Virus record (IMG/VR): IMGVR_UViG_3300032285_003395
Coordinates: 33,666-97,665 of that record
Source of the DNA: a virus
DNA: 64,000 nt
Direction: 5' to 3' (one strand)
A model generated the notes under the pieces. That model was not told the DNA's origin and did no database searches. It saw only the letters and a list, made by a program, of their open reading frames with translations. This document shows, piece by piece, positions 19,636 to 56,323 of the stretch. A program made the position numbers and the translations under genes. Every line of letters begins with the position of its first letter. Position 1 is the stretch's first letter.

Positions 19636-20446
19636 TTAAATCTAATGCATCGTCTATTAATACTTTACCTTGAATTTCATCTTTATATGATAGAGGATAT
19701 ATTAGTGGTTCATCTATTTTTACAGAGTTACAAACTACCCAATGAAATGGGCGTAAAGTATAATCACCATAACCATTCTTTTCCATAAAATCTTCTATTC
19801 CCATTAAATATAACTTACCTTGTAAATGATAATAATATTTTTTAACTGACTCAGGAAATTGTGGAGGATAACTGCTAGATTTTAAATCTGTTACAATTAT
19901 TTCTTTATTTGCTTTATCAATTTTTAAATAATCTAATTTAACTAAAAAATTAAAATCTCTATATTTAAATTCCCATTTAAATTGTGCTTCACCTTCAGAA
20001 AATAAAAAATTAACTTTTTCATCTTTCTTTAAGTAAGTACCTATTTCTTTTCCTAAATCAAAATTATCTTTTAATATTTTATTTTTAGGATCTTTAAAAT
20101 AGCTAATATAATCTGGATAACTTAATACAGTATTTAATATTTTTTCATAATTCTTAGATTTTACATTTAATGAAGTAGCAGCTTCTTCAACTGATTCTAA
20201 ATTAAATTCTTTTTGATTGTTAATAATAAATTCTATAATAAATTTTATTTGTGGTTTAGGAAGCTCAATATCTAATATTTCTTCCGTAAACTCTTCATTA
20301 AATACTACTTTATCAATTACAGTTCCTTTTTCCAAAAAAGAAGATTTTTTATAAACTGGGTTTAAAAAAGAATCTTTACCTTCTTTTAATAATCTACTCA
20401 AGGAACTGTAACTTAATCTTAGTGTTTCTTTATTAGGTGTTTGCAT
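19571..20446 (-). CDS. PD-(D/E)XK exonuclease (RecE/DUF3799-like)
   Basis: LSYSSL, KLD, DLKSS, YxxQxxxY; start moved to the ATG at 20446. Confidence 0.75.
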   Translation of the reverse strand: MQTPNKETLRLSYSSLSRLLKEGKDSFLNPVYKKSSFLEKGTVIDKVVFNEEFTEEILDIELPKPQIKFIIEFIINNQKEFNLESVEEAATSLNVKSKNYEKILNTVLSYPDYISYFKDPKNKILKDNFDLGKEIGTYLKKDEKVNFLFSEGEAQFKWEFKYRDFNFLVKLDYLKIDKANKEIIVTDLKSSSYPPQFPESVKKYYYHLQGKLYLMGIEDFMEKNGYGDYTLRPFHWVVCNSVKIDEPLIYPLSYKDEIQGKVLIDDALDLIEKYIKNDWNDLEESTSDIFF

Positions 20447-21887
20447 AATGATTATTTGTATAAGATGCAAAAGTACTCAATTTATCTGTAAAAAACAAAT
20501 TTTTTCTATTATTATAATAATAAATTAATTCTTTTTTAACTTCATCTTTAAAATAATAATTAATTACATCCATAACAGTAAATACATGTCCTTCTAAGCA
20601 TTCTTTTATGTGATCTTGCACAAACTCAAAGATAGCAATAGAAAGTAAAATTTGATTAATAACTCTGTTAGAGTTAAAAGTATTTTCATGAATTCTAAAT
20701 TCTATAGTATTTCTACTAGAAAATAATAAATTCATAAAATTAAATACATAATACCTGTTTACTCTATCCCATTTATTTTTTAAAGGATGTTTCTTATTCT
20801 TTTTGTTAAAGTTTTTACAAGAAGCAATTCCATCTGTTAAAAATAAAAATATATTTTTGTTATTATAATTAACAAGATATTCAAATTCTTTTTTATCTAT
20901 CTTATTAAATGATATATTTTTACATAAAGGAGGTAAAGGTTTAGTATAATGTTTTCTTTTATTTAATACATTTTCTTTTTTATAATAAGGAAAATAACTA
21001 AAATAATCATGTTGAAAATAATATAAAAAATTATACAATGCATTGATAAAAACTTTATCATTTCTAATATTACCAATATGAACATGCAAACTACAGTTTA
21101 TATCAGTATTAACATTATTAGCATTTAAATTCATAAATTTTTTAATACTCTCAATACCTTTTAATCCTGACATAGGTACAGAAACATACTCTGCATTATC
21201 AATAGAACCATCTCTACAAATAGAAAATCCATATTTTTTTAAACTATGACGATATACAGAACCTTCAGAAGTTTCTAACTCTATACCAAAAGTATAATTT
21301 TTTAAATATTTTTTATATTTATAAGTAGTTTTTTCTATTTCAATATTAGATTTATTATATAAAAGAACAGATTCTTGATAATCTGAATTATCTTCTATAT
21401 TATAAGCTCTATGAGTTGCAATAGAAGATGAAGTTTCTTCTTTTATTTGTTCAATAAAACTTTCTTGATCTGTAATATTTCCAATATAATAAAATTTAGA
21501 ATTAGCTTTATTAAAAATAAAATCTGAATCATATAAAATTTCTTTAACATCTTTTATATAAACTATAGCTGTATCATATTGAAAAATTTTACCCTTATTA
21601 ATAAAAACAAGATCTTTGGTACATTTAAAATAAATTTGTTCCATCTTAGTAGGATCTTTAAGAAAGAATCCTAGTGTAAATGTTTTATTATTTTTATCAT
21701 AAGAAATTACACCAAAATCAAAACTATTATCTCTAATTAATTTACTAAAATGATAATGTTTATTTAAATCTTCTATAAAATATACATCAGGATGATTTAT
21801 ATGATAATAATTTTTTCTATAAATAATACATTCTTTTCTAGGTACTTCGTTACCAAGAATGTCAATAACTTTTTTATAAGTTTTCAT
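20433..21887 (-). CDS. Putative amidoligase (COOH-NH2 ligase, Amidoligase_2-like)
   Basis: TFGIELET, DGSI, EYVS, CSLHVHIG, RYxxxN, TIEFR. Confidence 0.85.
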   Translation of the reverse strand: MKTYKKVIDILGNEVPRKECIIYRKNYYHINHPDVYFIEDLNKHYHFSKLIRDNSFDFGVISYDKNNKTFTLGFFLKDPTKMEQIYFKCTKDLVFINKGKIFQYDTAIVYIKDVKEILYDSDFIFNKANSKFYYIGNITDQESFIEQIKEETSSSIATHRAYNIEDNSDYQESVLLYNKSNIEIEKTTYKYKKYLKNYTFGIELETSEGSVYRHSLKKYGFSICRDGSIDNAEYVSVPMSGLKGIESIKKFMNLNANNVNTDINCSLHVHIGNIRNDKVFINALYNFLYYFQHDYFSYFPYYKKENVLNKRKHYTKPLPPLCKNISFNKIDKKEFEYLVNYNNKNIFLFLTDGIASCKNFNKKNKKHPLKNKWDRVNRYYVFNFMNLLFSSRNTIEFRIHENTFNSNRVINQILLSIAIFEFVQDHIKECLEGHVFTVMDVINYYFKDEVKKELIYYYNNRKNLFFTDKLSTFASYTNNHYANT

Positions 21888-21897
21888 AATTTTATTT

Positions 21898-23598
21898 TTA
21901 ATAACCTCTTAAATATTCTTGTTCATTAAAATTATAACTTGAAAATTCGTCTTCATCTTCATCTTCAACAGGTTCATTGTGAGCAATATAAAATTCTAAT
22001 ACATGATTATTAATAGCTTCACAAAAAGAACCATATTCTTTAACCATATCATTCCAATAAACATTAAATAATACAGTAGAAAATTCTGTAAATTTAGAGT
22101 TAGCAACAACAGATGAAGTATCTATCATTAGATCAAACATTTCTAGTTTATATAAAGGATTTTGTTCTATAAAGTTTAATATAGTTTGTTTAGAAAGATT
22201 AGGTTGTAAAATAAATTTTAATAAATGATAACTAAAGAAATATTGTTCACAATAAAATTTTTCTATTACTTCTTTTTCATCTAAGAAATCTGTATCAATT
22301 TCTAAACTAGATTTACTAGGAATAGATAATAACATATTATTTCTATTACTATCTATTTCTTCTATTTTTACAATATTAAAACTTTCAAAAAACAAATGTT
22401 TGTTAATAAATATTTTAGGTAATGGAAAATAAACATTACTTTTTTTATTAATAGGTTTATACCAAGTGCTATTATATTTTATAGGAACCATACTAATACT
22501 TTCCAAATCATGGTTTGGAACTTCATAACTTAAAATATTATTAATATTAAATTCAAGATTTTTACTTAAAATTTTTGCTCTTATTAATTCTAAATTTACC
22601 CAAATACCTTTATTAAAAACATAAATATATTCTTCATCTAATATACTATCTAATGGTTTATTTATTAAATTAAATATAGTATTATCTTTATTAGATCTAT
22701 ATACACCATGTAATAATTTATTTTTAGATTTAGTTTTAAATAAACCTTTTTCAAATAAAATTTTAAATTTATCAGATTGATGTTCATCAAAACTATTTGT
22801 AGTATTAGAAAATAAATTATAATTACTATGTGTATAAAAAGAAGATTTACTAACAAAAACTTCATCTTGAAAACATTCAGTTCTATCTATTTCAACAGTA
22901 CTTATAACTTTATTATTTTTAAATTCAAAAATACAATTAGTATTAATATCAAATATATTTTTATTTTCTTCTGAAGTACAAATAAAATTTAAACCTTTTT
23001 TAACAGAAGATAAATATAAACCTTCATTAAGATAAACACCAAATAAAGGTCTTTCTTCAGTTAAAATGTTATTATTAGTTTTAGATTCACCTTTAAATAC
23101 TTTAAGAGTTTGACCTCCATTATCAGTCCATACTAAAGTTGCTTTACCTCTATATTCTTTTAAAACATCATAACCATATTTATAAATAATATTAGCTAAT
23201 AAAAAAGAATCTACTTTATCATTTGTATCAATATCTATAGGATATTTTTTAACTAAATCTTCTATATTATAAATAGTACCATTATGACAAAATACAAAGT
23301 TATCATCAATAATAAAAGGATGCAAATTTTCATCTGTTTTACTTCCTTTAGTAGCATATCTAGTATGGCTAATTACACAAGTAGCTTTAGTTGTTTTTTT
23401 AGTAAAGTGAAGGTTTGTATACAATTCTGAAAAATTAGCTTTAGTAGCATCTTTATAAGAATAATTACTTGGGGCAGGGTTAGCCCAAATGCCAACCCCA
23501 TGTCCTCCTCTAGAATCATTTGCAATACTTGCTAACTTTAACTTTAATATATTTGGATTTTTATAGTTATTGCCTATAAATGCAGTTATTCCACACAT
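21898..23598 (-). CDS. Class II (Ntn) glutamine amidotransferase domain protein
   Basis: N-terminal MCGI, RG, HTRYAT, NxHPF, HNGTI, DS. Confidence 0.9.
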   Translation of the reverse strand: MCGITAFIGNNYKNPNILKLKLASIANDSRGGHGVGIWANPAPSNYSYKDATKANFSELYTNLHFTKKTTKATCVISHTRYATKGSKTDENLHPFIIDDNFVFCHNGTIYNIEDLVKKYPIDIDTNDKVDSFLLANIIYKYGYDVLKEYRGKATLVWTDNGGQTLKVFKGESKTNNNILTEERPLFGVYLNEGLYLSSVKKGLNFICTSEENKNIFDINTNCIFEFKNNKVISTVEIDRTECFQDEVFVSKSSFYTHSNYNLFSNTTNSFDEHQSDKFKILFEKGLFKTKSKNKLLHGVYRSNKDNTIFNLINKPLDSILDEEYIYVFNKGIWVNLELIRAKILSKNLEFNINNILSYEVPNHDLESISMVPIKYNSTWYKPINKKSNVYFPLPKIFINKHLFFESFNIVKIEEIDSNRNNMLLSIPSKSSLEIDTDFLDEKEVIEKFYCEQYFFSYHLLKFILQPNLSKQTILNFIEQNPLYKLEMFDLMIDTSSVVANSKFTEFSTVLFNVYWNDMVKEYGSFCEAINNHVLEFYIAHNEPVEDEDEDEFSSYNFNEQEYLRGY

Positions 23599-23609
23599 AT
23601 ATTTTTTAT

Positions 23610-24005
23610 TTAGTTGTTAGTAATAGGTCTATAATCATTATAATCACCAGATGTAATAATTGTAGAACCTGAGTTTTCCATAAAATAAAGCCAAGCTTTT
23701 ATTACTTGACCCTTTAATTCAACATTAATTTCTTCTCTACAATACCATTCAGGATGTCCTTCTAGTCTATCTACTGATGGCAAATGTAAGTCTCTGTTAA
23801 TTTCCCAAACATCTACAACAATTTGTGTATCTGGAGTTTTATTAACAAAAGGAATACCACTAGCTCTCATTTGATATTTATCTACAGTTTTACCTGTACC
23901 TAACCATTTAGTCTGACCAGGAATATCTACAAGTCTAGAATTACCATAACCTTTACGTAAAGTGCCATAGCTTGCAATTAAAATATTATTTTTTATCATC
24001 TTCAC
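23610..24005 (-). CDS. Gamma-glutamylcyclotransferase (AIG2/GGCT-like)
   Basis: YGTLRKG, DRLEGHPxxY, AWxY. Confidence 0.9.
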   Translation of the reverse strand: MKMIKNNILIASYGTLRKGYGNSRLVDIPGQTKWLGTGKTVDKYQMRASGIPFVNKTPDTQIVVDVWEINRDLHLPSVDRLEGHPEWYCREEINVELKGQVIKAWLYFMENSGSTIITSGDYNDYRPITNN

Positions 24006-24097
24006 TTAATGTTTTTAAATCTTTAATAATTTCTTTTATTTCATGTATTTCAAAAGAACCTAGCCTATCAGACCATAATAATAATTCTGTTAATCTT

Positions 24098-25048
24098 TTA
24101 ATTATCTCTATCATTTTGATTAATTATATTAATGTCTGAATCTAATTGAAAGTTTTTCCAAGCTAATGATTTAGAATTTTTAAATTTTTTAAAATCCCAA
24201 TGTTCTAACTTACTTGTTTTAGTATGTCTATGAATATAATCAAATAGTTTAGCATATCTTTGAACAGTATAATCATTAGATATTAAAGTTGGACTAGAAT
24301 TAATTTCTAATACATAATATTTATCTTCAAATCTAATAATATCTACTGCACCAAAATCAGCTCCAACTGCTTCCATTGCTTTTAAAGCTGTTATACACAT
24401 ATCATAATTATATTCAGACCAAGGAATATAAATAAATGGATCTCCATTTAAAGATCTATTCCAAGCTTTTTGACTAGGATTACTAGGCTTTGGTTTTTCT
24501 AATACAGAAATTACTTTACCTAAACCACAATGTACTCTAAACTCTGCATCTTTTTCTAAATAAGGTGCAAAATAAAAATTAGTCATTTCATTTAAATCTA
24601 AAAAATGATTTAATTCATTACTATTATTTAGTACAATAAAATTTCTACCTTTTGCGTGTTGCAAAGGTCTACAAATTATAGGATATTCTAAATTAGAATC
24701 TTCAGAAATTTTTTCATAGGTATAATAGGGAGTTAATATATTATTATTTTTTAATATTTGTCTAGTTAATCCTTTGTTATTAATTTTTTCTAGAGCTTTA
24801 ATATTATTATAAACAATACTATTATTATTAACTGGTAAAGGTATTCTATTACCCCATCTAATAATTACATTTTCATTAAAAGGAGCATTAATAGATTTTT
24901 TAATAAAATAATCAGAAACATTATAATTAAATGATCTAAACCATTCTTTATTTTTAATTTTTCTTCTGATTCTTAATTCACAATTAAATTTCATGTGTTG
25001 ATAGACAGCTTTCATTGAAGGTCTACCATCTTTACCTACTAGTATCAT
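24098..25048 (-). CDS. ATP-grasp amide ligase (RimK/YheC-like)
   Basis: IRWG, NK, EFRVH, DFGAVD, LEINSSP. Confidence 0.85.
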   Translation of the reverse strand: MILVGKDGRPSMKAVYQHMKFNCELRIRRKIKNKEWFRSFNYNVSDYFIKKSINAPFNENVIIRWGNRIPLPVNNNSIVYNNIKALEKINNKGLTRQILKNNNILTPYYTYEKISEDSNLEYPIICRPLQHAKGRNFIVLNNSNELNHFLDLNEMTNFYFAPYLEKDAEFRVHCGLGKVISVLEKPKPSNPSQKAWNRSLNGDPFIYIPWSEYNYDMCITALKAMEAVGADFGAVDIIRFEDKYYVLEINSSPTLISNDYTVQRYAKLFDYIHRHTKTSKLEHWDFKKFKNSKSLAWKNFQLDSDINIINQNDRDN

Positions 25049-30414: not shown

Positions 30415-30620
30415 ATTTATTTATTTTTATTAATTAATAATTAATTTAAACTGTCTATAGCTTACTCATAGTTTCTCAAGCTATTTTTAGCTATAGTTAC
30501 AGTAATAGAACTCCAATTAAGCTATTAAGATTATTACAAAGGGTTGAGATTCCCATACTTATGCAATAACTCAATTACTTCTTAATGCACTAGTGCAATT
30601 ACTATTATGTGTCTAGCTCG

Positions 30621-30745
30621 TAGTCAGGACAGGATTCGAACCTGTATTATTCTAGCTATCAATATTATATAAGGGTACTTGCTTTTTCCCAAGAGATACC
30701 AGACCTCTGTCTCTTATATAGCGTCTACCATTCCGCCGCCTGACT
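30621..30745 (-). ncRNA. tRNA-like RNA 1: Leu-type D arm, T arm and acceptor stem; anticodon arm replaced by a branched insert
   Basis: AGTCAGG/CCTGACT acceptor, GGCGGAATGGTAGACGC, ACAGGTTCGAATCCTGT; about 75-nt central region with no 7-nt anticodon loop. Confidence 0.7.
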
Positions 30746-30748
30746 ATT

Positions 30749-30838
30749 TTATTTTAATAGACAACAAAGTAAAACTAATAAAGGAATTAATAATATTCCC
30801 AAAACTATCAAATGCTGTTGTTTTTCTTCTTTATTCAT
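30749..30838 (-). CDS. 29-aa single-TM peptide (not in the ORF track)
   Basis: MNKEEKQQHLIVLGILLIPLLVLLCCLLK with an A-rich leader, between the two tRNA-like RNAs. Confidence 0.5.
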   Translation of the reverse strand: MNKEEKQQHLIVLGILLIPLLVLLCCLLK

Positions 30839-30854
30839 AATTATTTAATTTTTG

Positions 30855-30947
30855 TAGTCAGGACAGGATTCGAACCTGTATGATAACACGACCTATTGAT
30901 TATCGGTTGTTATCTACGTATAGCGTCTACCATTCCGCCACCTGACT
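30855..30947 (-). ncRNA. tRNA-like RNA 2: same scaffold, different central hairpin
   Basis: AGTCAGGTGGCGGAATGGTAGACGC...GATAACA/TGTTATC stem...ACAGGTTCGAATCCTGTCCTGACT. Confidence 0.7.
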
Positions 30948-32769: not shown

Positions 32770-33080
32770 AGTAAATAGTTTAAGGTTAAAAAAAAGTATG
32801 GTTTTTCCTCACCAAAAAGCTTTTATTGTATGAAGTCCAATAAATAAGTCCTGTTTAATTTGTGTTTTACACCTAAAACTATAATTATTTATAGAAACTG
32901 GTGTCCTTAACATCTTGGAAAGAGTTAAGTTTTTTTTATTTTGCTATATTATGTAACTTTTGGGTAAAATTAAAAATAGTTAAATGGTAAATGAGGTGCT
33001 CTCCAGCCTTCTTACCCCACTTACCACCCACTATTACTAACAAAAAAAGGGTATTATAGATACCAAACTTGGGATAATGC

Positions 33081-33181
33081 TTATGGTTTTGAATAAATCA
33101 AAAGTTAATGACCATAATAAAGTTTATCCTATTAAATTAGTTTAAGGTTTTGAATTAGATTCAAAAGTTAATGACCTTAAA
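33081..33181 (-). repeat. Two tandem bulged hairpins sharing GGTCATTAACTTTTGA
   Basis: Copies at 33081-33117 and 33141-33181; outer stems differ in sequence but still pair. Confidence 0.75.
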
Positions 33182-33418: not shown

Positions 33419-33821
33419 ATTGCCACACAGCATTTGCTCTTTCAGCAGCTTCTTGTTTTTCAACATCAAAATCTTTAAGTAGACCTTTCACTGTGAAATA
33501 TCTAGGTCCATTTTTTGTGTTATCATCTGCTCTTTTAGAAACTACAACTTCACAATTATCCAGAGTCGTCAAAGGCTTTACTGTAAAGGGTGTGCCATCT
33601 TTTTTGAGAGCAGAGCCAAGTTTTCTCCAAGATATTTGAATACCTGCATGAGAATACTCTCCAACAAATTCTAGATCAAATCGTTGAACCTCAGAGTTAT
33701 CTTGTTTAGAGCGAGTAATTTCACTTGAAATAATTTTACAAGTGTTTGCACCAATAGGAATAGTATCTAATACTATGTAAGTGCTAGTGTCTGTTGGGTT
33801 TACCGTGGAATTGGTTTGCAT
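33417..33821 (-). CDS. Hypothetical protein; first gene of the leftward arm, monocistronic
   Basis: 134-aa ORF with its own terminator. Confidence 0.65.
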   Translation of the reverse strand: MQTNSTVNPTDTSTYIVLDTIPIGANTCKIISSEITRSKQDNSEVQRFDLEFVGEYSHAGIQISWRKLGSALKKDGTPFTVKPLTTLDNCEVVVSKRADDNTKNGPRYFTVKGLLKDFDVEKQEAAERANAVWQ

Positions 33822-34005
33822 AATTTAAAATTTTTAATGTTAGTAAATGACGGGAGTATTTCAAAATCCCGAAGTTAGGCTGGGCTTGGTTGGGGAGGGT
33901 ACTCCAACTCTTAGTGTCAAAAAAATTTTTTAGGGTAGGGGGTAAAAAAATTTTAAAAAAAAATTTTCAGGTTTTACAAGGCTTCCAAAAATTTTTTAAA
34001 ATAAT

Positions 34006-54506: not shown

Positions 54507-54553
54507 TTTAAAAAACTTAAAATTTTTTTTGATATTTGCATTTAAATAATTAT

Positions 54554-56323
54554 ATGTCAGACTTTGCAAATGAAAGAGAAAAGAATATTAAATTTTCAAT
54601 TTCTCTAAATGATGAACAAAAACAAGCAAAATCTGTTATATTAGAAAATAGTATATCTTATATAGCAGGTAAACCAGGTTCAGGTAAAACGCTTCTATGT
54701 GCTCAAATAGCATTAGATTTATATTTTAAGAAAAAAGTTAAACATATAATTATAACTAGACCAGCAGTTGAGGCAGGAGAGAAGTTAGGGTTTTTACCAG
54801 GAGGTCTAGATGAAAAGTTAGACCCTTATATGCAAGCAATATATAAAAATTTTTATGCTTTGTATAATAAGGCTAAGGTTGATAAAATGATACAAGATGG
54901 TGTAATTCAAATACACCCTTTTGCATATATGAGAGGTAGTACATTTTGTGATGCAGTTATTATAGTAGATGAATGTTTAACAGGAGATAGTATAATAAAT
55001 GTAGAATTTAATAATAATTCTACATCAAGATTATTTAATAGTTCTACATTATCTTCAATAATAAAAAAATTTAAAAATAATAAAGAAATTAAAGTTTTAT
55101 CTTATAATTCTTTAACTAATAAAATTGAACGAAAAAAAGTAATAGACATCTTTGAAATGGGTGAAAAACAAATTTTTGATATTTATACAGGGTTAAAAAA
55201 GAAGCCGATTAGTGCTTCTAAAAATCACCCTTTTGCAATATTAAAAAATGGAGAAATTGTTTATACAAAAGTTAAAGATTTAAAAAAAGGAGACACTGTA
55301 TTAAGAGCAGTTAACAAAAACTCTAATAATAGTAGAATTTTAAAGAAAGAAAATTATGATGTTTTATTAGGATTATTATTAGGAGATGGTTGTTTATTAA
55401 AAAATAAACAAGATAAGTTAGCTTTTAGATTATCTAAAACTCATGGTTTATCTCAAGAAAATTATAATAGTTATTGTGCTGATATTTTTAATGGAAATCT
55501 ATGTAAAGGATTAATTTCTGGATATACAGGTAAACCTTTATGTGGTATGCAAACTAAAAGTTTGTATTTAGACCAAGATTTTGTTAACTCTATAAAAAAC
55601 TTTAAAAATAAAAAAGAAATTACAAAAAATATTATTAATTATTTTACAGAAAGAACATTGGCTTTTTGGTATATGGATGATGGTTCTTTAGACGCATCTA
55701 ATAGAGTTAGATTACATACAGAATCTTTTTCAAAAGAAGAAAATGAAATATTAATAAATATTTTAAAAGAAAAATTTAATATAACTGCTGAACTTAAATA
55801 TACTAGTAAAAATAAAGGATATTATTATTTAACAATAAATAAAGAAAATAGTAAATTATTTTTTAATTTAGTAAAAAATTATATACAAGAAGATTTGTTA
55901 TATAAATTACCTAAAGAATATAGTCAAGAAAAATTTATTAAAGTTGAACCTTTATTTTTTGATGACTTATCTACAAGTGAAATTACAGAAATTAAAACAG
56001 ATAGATTTGAACCTGTTTATAATATTACTGTTGAAGATAATAATAACTTTTTTGTAGATGGTATTTTAACCCATAATTGCCAAAATACCTCAGAGAGTCA
56101 AGTTAGAATGGTGTTGGAAAGACTTGGTAAAGATAGTAAGATGATGTTATGTGGTGATGTGAATCAAATAGATTTAGCAAAAACTGTAACATCTGGAATA
56201 AAGTTTTTAGAATTTTTAAAAGAATCTAATCTAAAAAACTTTACAAAAATAGTGTTAAAATCTAATCATAGAGACCCAATTGTAGAGGATATAATAAACC
56301 TTTACGAGATATATAAAAAATAA
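54554..56323 (+). CDS. phoH: PhoH-like ATPase interrupted by an intein
   Basis: GKPGSGKT, TRPAVE, LGFLPG, YMRG, DE|CQN, GDxxQxD, HR. Confidence 0.9.
   Translation: MSDFANEREKNIKFSISLNDEQKQAKSVILENSISYIAGKPGSGKTLLCAQIALDLYFKKKVKHIIITRPAVEAGEKLGFLPGGLDEKLDPYMQAIYKNFYALYNKAKVDKMIQDGVIQIHPFAYMRGSTFCDAVIIVDECLTGDSIINVEFNNNSTSRLFNSSTLSSIIKKFKNNKEIKVLSYNSLTNKIERKKVIDIFEMGEKQIFDIYTGLKKKPISASKNHPFAILKNGEIVYTKVKDLKKGDTVLRAVNKNSNNSRILKKENYDVLLGLLLGDGCLLKNKQDKLAFRLSKTHGLSQENYNSYCADIFNGNLCKGLISGYTGKPLCGMQTKSLYLDQDFVNSIKNFKNKKEITKNIINYFTERTLAFWYMDDGSLDASNRVRLHTESFSKEENEILINILKEKFNITAELKYTSKNKGYYYLTINKENSKLFFNLVKNYIQEDLLYKLPKEYSQEKFIKVEPLFFDDLSTSEITEIKTDRFEPVYNITVEDNNNFFVDGILTHNCQNTSESQVRMVLERLGKDSKMMLCGDVNQIDLAKTVTSGIKFLEFLKESNLKNFTKIVLKSNHRDPIVEDIINLYEIYKK
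54974..56077 (+). mobile_element. Intein (368 aa) with LAGLIDADG homing endonuclease
   Basis: Starts CLTGD, block B HPF, LLGDG and WYMDDG motifs, ends VYNITV...THN, +1 residue Cys. Confidence 0.92.

Follow-up and report, generated by a model that had tools for sequence, protein, structure and literature searches.

Two tRNA-shaped elements, copy 1 and copy 2, lie close together on the minus strand of a 64,000-nt stretch of viral DNA (positions 33,666 to 97,665 of IMG/VR virus record IMGVR_UViG_3300032285_003395), which is referred to here as the window. Comparison with sequences from other viruses identifies them as two members of a very large and apparently undescribed family of phage RNAs, in which a tRNA-Leu chassis consisting of acceptor stem, D arm and T arm surrounds an insert in the place of the anticodon domain. 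Both elements are predicted genes for non-decoding RNAs without an anticodon. The original prediction, which was based on the window alone, had recognized that elbow and acceptor are kept while the anticodon domain is free but structured, and had suggested a non-decoding role. Comparative data support this core, but the two copies can no longer be treated as a local pair, as all fetched loci together contained 345 unique elements at 227 loci (201 of the 345 elements being longer than 95 nt). Comparison loci and contigs that were fetched, most of them viral, are denoted by L-numbers.

The copies have direct repeats in common, of 34 nt (94%) on the 5' side and of 31 nt (97%) on the 3' side, and as the spacing of the two repeat families differs (202 versus 234), the centers differ in length by 32 nt. 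The proposed arrangement of nearly identical acceptor, Leu-type D and T arms around unrelated centers was therefore recovered, although the 5' end of copy 1, previously placed at 30747, lies at 30745. The 25-nt 3' half of the chassis occurs exactly twice in the window and not at all in 100 shuffles. In both copies, the acceptor is a stem of 7 bp (AGUCAGG/CCUGACU) followed by U8 (C8 in copy 1) and G9, the D arm has a 3-bp stem with a loop of the bacterial tRNA-Leu kind, and the T arm reads ACAGG-UUCGAAU-CCUGU. With the Rfam tRNA model RF00005, copy 2 passed the gathering cut-off of 29 bits by skipping 26 nt in the anticodon loop, and copy 1 stayed below it with 23.9 bits. The minimum-energy fold of copy 2 (z = -2.96 for the whole RNA) comprises acceptor, D arm, T arm and the long GATAACA/TGTTATC hairpin that had been described before; this hairpin shows covariation and is 6 kcal/mol more stable than a stem at the canonical anticodon-stem position. 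The parts of a canonical tRNA elbow, that is a 7-bp acceptor, a D arm and a T arm, are thus present, and acceptor and T stems covary, whereas the supported fold of copy 2 has a 10-bp hairpin with an 11-nt loop in place of a canonical anticodon arm. As had been noted, a 5-bp/7-nt anticodon arm and an encoded CCA are missing from both copies.

ARAGORN in its default mode reported no tRNA at either copy. When introns were allowed and the threshold was lowered, copy 2 was called as Ile(GAU) with a 19-nt intron and A33, and copy 1 as Gly(ACC) with a 36-nt intron at 32/33. These forced calls, together with a few relatives whose loop is near-canonical for Leu(UAA) or Leu(CAA), are what can be said for true decoding tRNAs with short unconventional introns or refolding. 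However, A33 or an intron at 32/33 and the disagreement with the Leu-type body speak against it, and forced calls on 114 unique elements yielded nearly every amino acid, with intron sites at 28–41 and intron lengths of 2–73 nt. Because these calls scatter and clash with the uniform Leu-type body, the forced anticodons appear to be chance products on a strong chassis. No consistent anticodon, whether refolded or spliced, was obtained in this way, and as no single removal restores an arm that agrees with the Leu body, an intron-containing tRNA was rejected. A group I intron core usually occupies at least 200 nt and the inserts have merely 20–109 nt, without any Rfam intron match; moreover, covariation favors the long hairpin over an anticodon stem. 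That the elements decode is hardly credible.

Two other kinds of tRNA-like RNA were rejected as candidates. Like tmRNA (transfer-messenger RNA), the window elements have a tRNA-like upper half with a non-tRNA domain between its halves, but they possess U3-A70 instead of G3.U70, lack tag open reading frame (ORF) and pseudoknots and are 5–7 times shorter, and the tmRNA mode of ARAGORN found nothing. In YrlA, a permuted tRNA-like module, a loop closes the acceptor and the ends of the RNA make up a stem that binds Ro, whereas in the window elements the 5' and 3' ends pair to give the acceptor, which covaries; Rfam reported no match to Y RNA. A phage-borne tmRNA (68.8 bits) was encountered separately, at L055:553-939 on the minus strand, a few hundred bases from a chassis element and tRNAs.

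Members of the family were collected in two ways. A search of viral contigs with the exact 25-nt 3' half of the chassis (sample 1) matched at least 120 contigs, most of which carried the same 5' half upstream and a center of unrelated sequence. Elements of sample 1 have total lengths of 54–147 nt, occur in up to 5 copies per locus and contain the inserts of 20–109 nt mentioned above. In sample 2, only the D and T arms were fixed and the acceptor was left free, which gave 97 unique elements with 71 insert clusters; across the family, about 125 unrelated (non-redundant) inserts were distinguished. The acceptors of sample 2 comprise 32 variants in which 98% of the cells are paired, and wholly different acceptors such as TGTTGTG/CACAACA, GCTAGTG/CACTAGC and GGGGCAG/CTGCCCC are still paired at 7 of 7 positions. 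A73 is conserved in 89%, C74 in 95% and U-1 in 84% of the sample 2 elements, of which only 2 of 97 encode CCA. In a set of 79 family members, at least 73 have U at position 48. Among 510 genuine tRNAs predicted by ARAGORN in the same loci, C74 is found in 91% and U-1 in 66%, with CAA or CTA at positions 74–76 and no encoded CCA. Because the flanks match, the same enzymes would be expected to mature both the genuine tRNAs and the chassis elements. A tRNA-shaped gene with the acceptor GCCGGGU/ACCCGGC and a long insert replacing the anticodon arm was also seen in L450 (metagenome contig OBEQ013047219.1, minus strand, about 294-430), which points to further chassis, with different sequences, in metagenomes.

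A search of the cellular genomes of 185,579 species returned the exact 3' half of the chassis in only 14 contigs, which without exception come from metagenome-assembled genomes and are of the insert type; by their titles, many of these are freshwater Bacteroidota bins. An origin from a host tRNA was rejected on the basis of this distribution. No GenBank phage record matched both halves of the chassis, and in the genome of phage SPP1 (X97918.2) neither the tRNA model at E values up to 1 nor a pattern search yielded a tRNA-shaped element. Furthermore, no description of the family was found in the literature; a 2026 preprint on three bacterial tRNA mimics deals with different RNAs.

The insert type of copy 2 occurs in five phages with unrelated flanks (carriers L092/L151/L175/L201/L227, L157, L163, L165 and L200), whose 1.5-kb flanks have in common only further chassis copies, a hairpin of the GAAAGA type and, in the case of L163 and the window, a single weak protein match. 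In an alignment of nine sequences of this type, pair 37-66 appears as A-U, G-C and U-A and pair 38-65 as C-G, U-A and A-U, and the acceptor pairs 3-92 and 4-91 as well as the T-stem pair 71-87 changed on both sides. The covariation score was reached by none of 500 shuffles, and slid controls fell to 32–44% paired. Invariant in the insert are the unpaired stretch UAUACGUAG, ACAACCG and a CG bulge. For the insert of copy 1, a homologue with 92% identity was detected (L489:37-161) on an otherwise unrelated contig of 53.6 kb. Across 118 inserts, folding was modestly but significantly more stable than that of dinucleotide shuffles (mean z = -0.70, t = -7.0). A random unstructured decay of the homologues, which had been named as an outcome that would contradict the original prediction, was not seen; instead, insert stems show compensatory changes. 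One element (L165:8408-8501, minus strand) retains the T arm, the 3' acceptor strand and an intact insert of the copy 2 type, but unrelated sequence has taken the place of its 5' acceptor strand and D stem; this chassis is either broken or the product of recombination.

Exchange of inserts is evident from one syntenic slot that was compared in 12 contigs. Here the 400-nt upstream flanks are 82–100% identical and many of the downstream flanks are about 90% identical, and the slot contains at least five unrelated inserts, including the copy 2 type, as well as a near-canonical tRNA-Leu(UAA). This last form, found in L061, L067 and L095 (element right after GTAGTATATTTGCAT), has the same chassis, a 7-bp stem from which an A bulges out, closed by the loop CUUAAGU (Leu UAA), and a GAAA-capped variable arm; it occupies the slot of insert-bearing members, is called tRNA-Leu(taa) by ARAGORN and may represent the ancestral state. 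By these comparisons, inserts are exchanged through cassette replacement bounded by the constant arms, and such replacement, together with the near-canonical Leu(UAA) element in the slot, suggests that the family originated from a phage tRNA-Leu. By analogy with the tRNA clusters of T4 and T5, homing endonucleases may drive the exchange.

In the window, both elements stand at the start of a leftward operon of replication genes (Table 1). A close fit between genes is seen in the family as a whole, as 46% of elements have a same-strand ORF of at least 30 amino acids ending within 15 nt upstream (8% on the opposite strand) and 52% have a same-strand ORF starting within 30 nt downstream (25% on the opposite strand). 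The hairpin with a GAAAGA loop that precedes copy 2 is also located directly 5' of family members in L026, L031, L054, L071, L110 and L489. Its stem varies from GCTTG/CAAGC to GCTCG/CGAGC among loci, a compensatory change from U-A to C-G, and it tracks the chassis and not the insert type; leader, promoter and processing signal are possible roles. Among ORFs of up to 60 amino acids that start 0–40 nt past family members, 21% look like transmembrane proteins, as compared to 7% of the other ORFs in the same loci, and small hydrophobic ORFs are therefore about three times commoner immediately downstream of family members. The 29-codon ORF between the two copies gave no Pfam match, and the window genes that flank the pair have no informative domains, with the exception of an SLT transglycosylase two genes downstream. 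The 147-amino acid protein has 371 relatives, of which the two closest (67% identity) have no comparable RNA pair upstream of their genes.

Table 1. Positions in the window of the two tRNA-Leu-chassis elements, their parts and the adjoining features, in the order of transcription.
Feature	Position	Strand	Remarks
123-aa ORF	31430-31059	-	upstream of copy 2
TGACA + GCTTG-GAAAGA-CAAGC hairpin	30973-30953	-	stops 5 nt ahead of the 5' end of copy 2
Copy 2, tRNA-Leu-chassis RNA, 93 nt (A1 to A73)	30947-30855	-	Rfam tRNA 41.2 bits; cloverleaf-like minimum-energy fold
Copy 2 arms	acceptor 30947-30941 / 30862-30856; D arm 30938-30923; T arm 30879-30863; A73 30855	-
Copy 2 insert, 43 nt	30922-30880	-	invariant single-stranded UAUACGUA, then hairpin
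Copy 2 insert hairpin	30914-30881	-	7 bp + 3 bp, CG bulge, 11-nt A/U-rich loop
C74	30854 (copy 2), 30620 (copy 1)	-	directly after A73; CCA not encoded in either
29-codon hydrophobic ORF MNKEEKQQHLIVLGILLIPLLVLLCCLLK	30838-30749	-	between the copies; start 16 nt past C74 of copy 2; stop 3 nt before copy 1
Copy 1, tRNA-Leu-chassis RNA, 125 nt	30745-30621	-	arms repeat those of copy 2; 92%-identical homologue L489:37-161
Copy 1 arms	acceptor 30745-30739 / 30628-30622; D arm 30736-30721; T arm 30645-30629; A73 30621	-
Copy 1 insert, 75 nt	30720-30646	-	closing stem 30719-30713 / 30673-30667 enclosing two hairpins, then about 21 unpaired nt
Spacer, 206 nt	between copy 1 and 147-aa ORF
147-aa ORF	30414-29971	-	downstream of copy 1

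Taken as a whole, these observations are best explained by non-decoding RNAs derived from tRNA-Leu that would be matured by tRNA enzymes and would carry an exchangeable structured module, an explanation that we hold with somewhat more confidence than doubt. Such RNAs would have arisen from a phage class II tRNA-Leu, and their chassis (7-bp acceptor, Leu-type D arm with G18G19, U48, T arm, A73 and C74) would fold into a tRNA elbow. The 5' end would be produced by host RNase P at U-1/A1 and the 3' end by trimming and by completion of CCA from C74, giving RNAs that would be expected to be stable. The insert, which replaces anticodon and variable arms, would be a separate structured module, conserved within each type, swapped by recombination in the constant arms and conferring on each RNA its specific activity. 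Since the genes lie co-directionally between ORFs, their release would at the same time divide the early operon transcript into individual mRNAs, as a by-product or as a second role. Among the roles proposed originally, a scaffold for cargo RNA and an RNase P/Z processing signal would both fit the cassette exchange, the conserved inserts, the placement in operons and the tRNA-like U-1/A73/C74 flanks, whereas a decoy is without specific support.

The chassis RNAs may also be leucylated. In PMC9976931, bacterial leucine identity is attributed to A73, A15-U48, G18G19, A20a in the D loop and D/T-loop contacts, and the same paper states, citing Larkin et al. 2002, that anticodon and variable arm are dispensable for leucyl-tRNA synthetase (LeuRS) from E. 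coli, a tRNA-Leu without both arms still being charged. Of this set, both copies possess A73, A15-U48, G18G19 and the D/T-loop contacts, and the family has conserved them. Leucylation is plausible because the chassis retains what LeuRS needs and drops only what LeuRS ignores. One can go further and imagine a natural tRNA-scaffold display, in which a host-matured and perhaps charged chassis would present shuffled modules as decoys, sponges or aptamers in host takeover or counter-defence. This would explain the turnover of cassettes at fixed slots and the neighboring anti-defence and homing-endonuclease genes, but as a specific proposal it is doubtful.

Several observations weigh against an insert that acts as a structured module. 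The apparent constancy of the chassis is in part a consequence of searching with exact patterns. No 6- or 7-mer was present in more than 10 of the 125 non-redundant inserts. When 20 loci (67 kb) were searched against Rfam by E-value, only tRNA or tmRNA and no insert family were returned, and antisense control of the phage's own genes was rejected, as the longest complementary runs of 11–13 nt are at the level of shuffles; with no motif, no Rfam family and no antisense target, nothing points to what the inserts do. A conserved insert stem could be kept merely to avoid misfolding of the chassis. In the case of copy 1, the three-way junction that had been described is the minimum-energy fold, and the closing stem shows one compensatory change from A-U to G-C and one change from A-U to G.U in the homologue from L489; however, its z of about -0.9 to -0.8 is no better than that of shuffles, L489 is the only homologue of this insert, and the inner CTTG/CAAG stem loses a pair there. 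A variable-arm-like hairpin, which had also been proposed for copy 1, is absent from the predicted fold. Searches with the loop patterns of copy 1 yielded only chance matches or true tRNAs.

If the inserts were inactive filler, the elements could be pure punctuation, that is, RNase P/Z cleavage signals which only set mRNA ends, as plant mitochondrial t-elements do. The tight co-directional placement between ORFs and the tRNA-like flanks would be explained in this way, as would a minimal member of 54 nt nearly without insert (L034), the extreme diversity of inserts without a common motif and the lack of any ordinary tRNA gene in the window phage. However, insert types are 80–92% conserved across phages with unrelated flanks, with compensatory changes in their stems and with unpaired stretches that are invariant. 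A minihelix would do for RNase P, and yet U48 and the complete Leu-type D arm have been retained; moreover, several differing copies occur per genome, so that punctuation on its own is a serious contender, if an unlikely one. A different possibility is that the chassis is bait and the elements are decoys or sponges for host factors acting on tRNA, such as defence enzymes that cut or modify tRNA or CCA, or LeuRS and EF-Tu. The whole upper half including A73 is preserved, and the exchange at the syntenic slot resembles an arms-race locus. Pfam searches of 150 genes next to family members, from about 150 loci, revealed 2 Acb2/Tad1-hairpin, 1 Tad3, 3–4 HNH endonuclease, 1 Thg1-like tRNA-His guanylyltransferase and 3 DUF932 genes. 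For 150 size-matched control genes located at least 1.5 kb away in the same loci, no Acb2/Tad1, Tad3, HNH or Thg1-like gene was among the 25 of 37 control families shown, but the counts are too small for significance; they suggest that the elements sit in accessory regions rich in anti-defence genes. Bait requires no variable insert, however, the inserts are unlike anticodon stem-loops, and we know of no defence target for this host range. A decoy role, which was part of the original prediction, is improbable.

A role at the level of DNA would make the arms targets of homing endonucleases or recombination tracts and the centers scars or hitch-hikers without RNA function. Identical arms of 26–31 nt would be ideal recombination tracts, genes of the HNH and GIY-YIG types are found beside some members and also in the T4 and T5 tRNA clusters, and the element in L165 kept its insert after losing the 5' acceptor strand. 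On the other hand, acceptor, T and insert stems covary, indicating constraint at the level of RNA, the elements show a strand bias relative to flanking genes, and the RNase P and 3'-end signature of true tRNAs is retained, all of which makes a function in DNA alone quite improbable.

The closest known RNAs are RNA1 and RNA2 of phage T5 and the species 1 stable RNA of phage T4. The T5 record AY543070 lists as misc_RNA RNA1 (30501-30644), RNA2 (32959-33083) and RNA3 (33877-33949), which are annotated as 'tRNA-like stable RNA with unknown functions'. RNA1 and RNA2 have an acceptor stem and a T arm around a large center without an anticodon arm, as in the family. RNA1 in addition has a Leu-type D arm, a center of about 85 nt and the 15-mer CGGAATTGGTAGACG exactly as in family members, and RNA2 (L123:4960-5084) has the T arm GCAGGUUCGAAUCCUGU, a 17- to 18-mer exactly as in family members, and a 15-nt stretch of its insert in common with an environmental element in L071. 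This stretch can be read as a hairpin that resembles a T loop (CUCG-UUCGAUU-CGAG), by which the insert would contain an elbow-type motif of its own, and a similar one was noticed in L077. The T5 RNAs, like the family, lie among tRNAs and small ORFs, some of them for membrane proteins, on one strand. However, the acceptor sequences differ, the D arm of RNA2 is not Leu-type, and T5 has 20-odd real tRNAs, whereas the window phage has none; T5 RNAs accumulate stably according to the annotation of the record, whereas the window elements are predicted RNAs. The T4 species 1 RNA (rnaC) is likewise a small stable RNA beside phage tRNAs that ends in a canonical T arm and an acceptor-like 3' strand, but a Leu-type D arm is missing from it and its sequence does not match the chassis.

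Other comparisons concern design or mode of action. Class II tRNA-Leu, such as the phage Leu(UAA) form, shares with the window elements the D arm, U8/G9, A14, A15, G18G19, U48, the T loop, A73 and the flanking U-1 and C74, whereas the 5-bp/7-nt anticodon arm, U33 and the anticodon are lacking in the window elements. In the engineered tRNA scaffold of Ponchon and Dardel, a cargo RNA reportedly replaces the anticodon arm and the tRNA body is said to provide processing and stability; the design is the same, but it is man-made, and the phage family would be its putative natural counterpart. The mascRNA of MALAT1 is a tRNA-shaped piece cut from a longer transcript, by which a small RNA is released. 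Plant mitochondrial t-elements (PMC1920247) are likewise tRNA-shaped pieces in longer transcripts that are cut by tRNA enzymes and thereby set mRNA ends. Both work as tRNA-shaped pieces inside longer transcripts, as is proposed for the window elements, for which cleavage is predicted from the flanks, but they are eukaryotic or organellar, degenerate, unrelated in sequence and without an exchangeable structured insert.

The pair in the window appears to belong to a much larger natural class that stands behind the tRNA-like stable RNAs of T4 and T5, a class with hundreds of distinct inserts on one tRNA-Leu chassis that are exchanged between unrelated phages. Recruitment of RNase P, LeuRS and the CCA-adding enzyme by the chassis, if it takes place, would make the family the natural form of the engineered tRNA scaffold and add a new layer to phage-host RNA biology, for which the T5 RNAs would be a tractable model. 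For annotation, the consequence is that tRNA finders miss such genes or assign spurious anticodons to them.

The window is part of a complete virus record of 97,665 bp with direct terminal repeats and about 25% G+C. Matches to phage families were obtained for terminase, portal and major head protein. In the case of the head protein, the identity to its counterpart in Flavobacterium phage FpV4 is 31%, and Bacteroides crAss-like phages were matched as well. Because of these matches, the window phage is assigned to the crAss-like phages, and its host is probably a member of the Bacteroidota. In the whole phage genome, no ordinary tRNA gene was found. Within the replication module, a run of genes at 20433-25048 (minus strand) resembles an amidoligase, a glutamine amidotransferase and a RimK/S6-glutaminyl transferase and may represent a pathway for peptide or nucleotide modification. 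A PhoH-like gene at 54536-56323 (plus strand) matches a LAGLIDADG homing endonuclease in its middle part, which suggests an intein or an inserted endonuclease.

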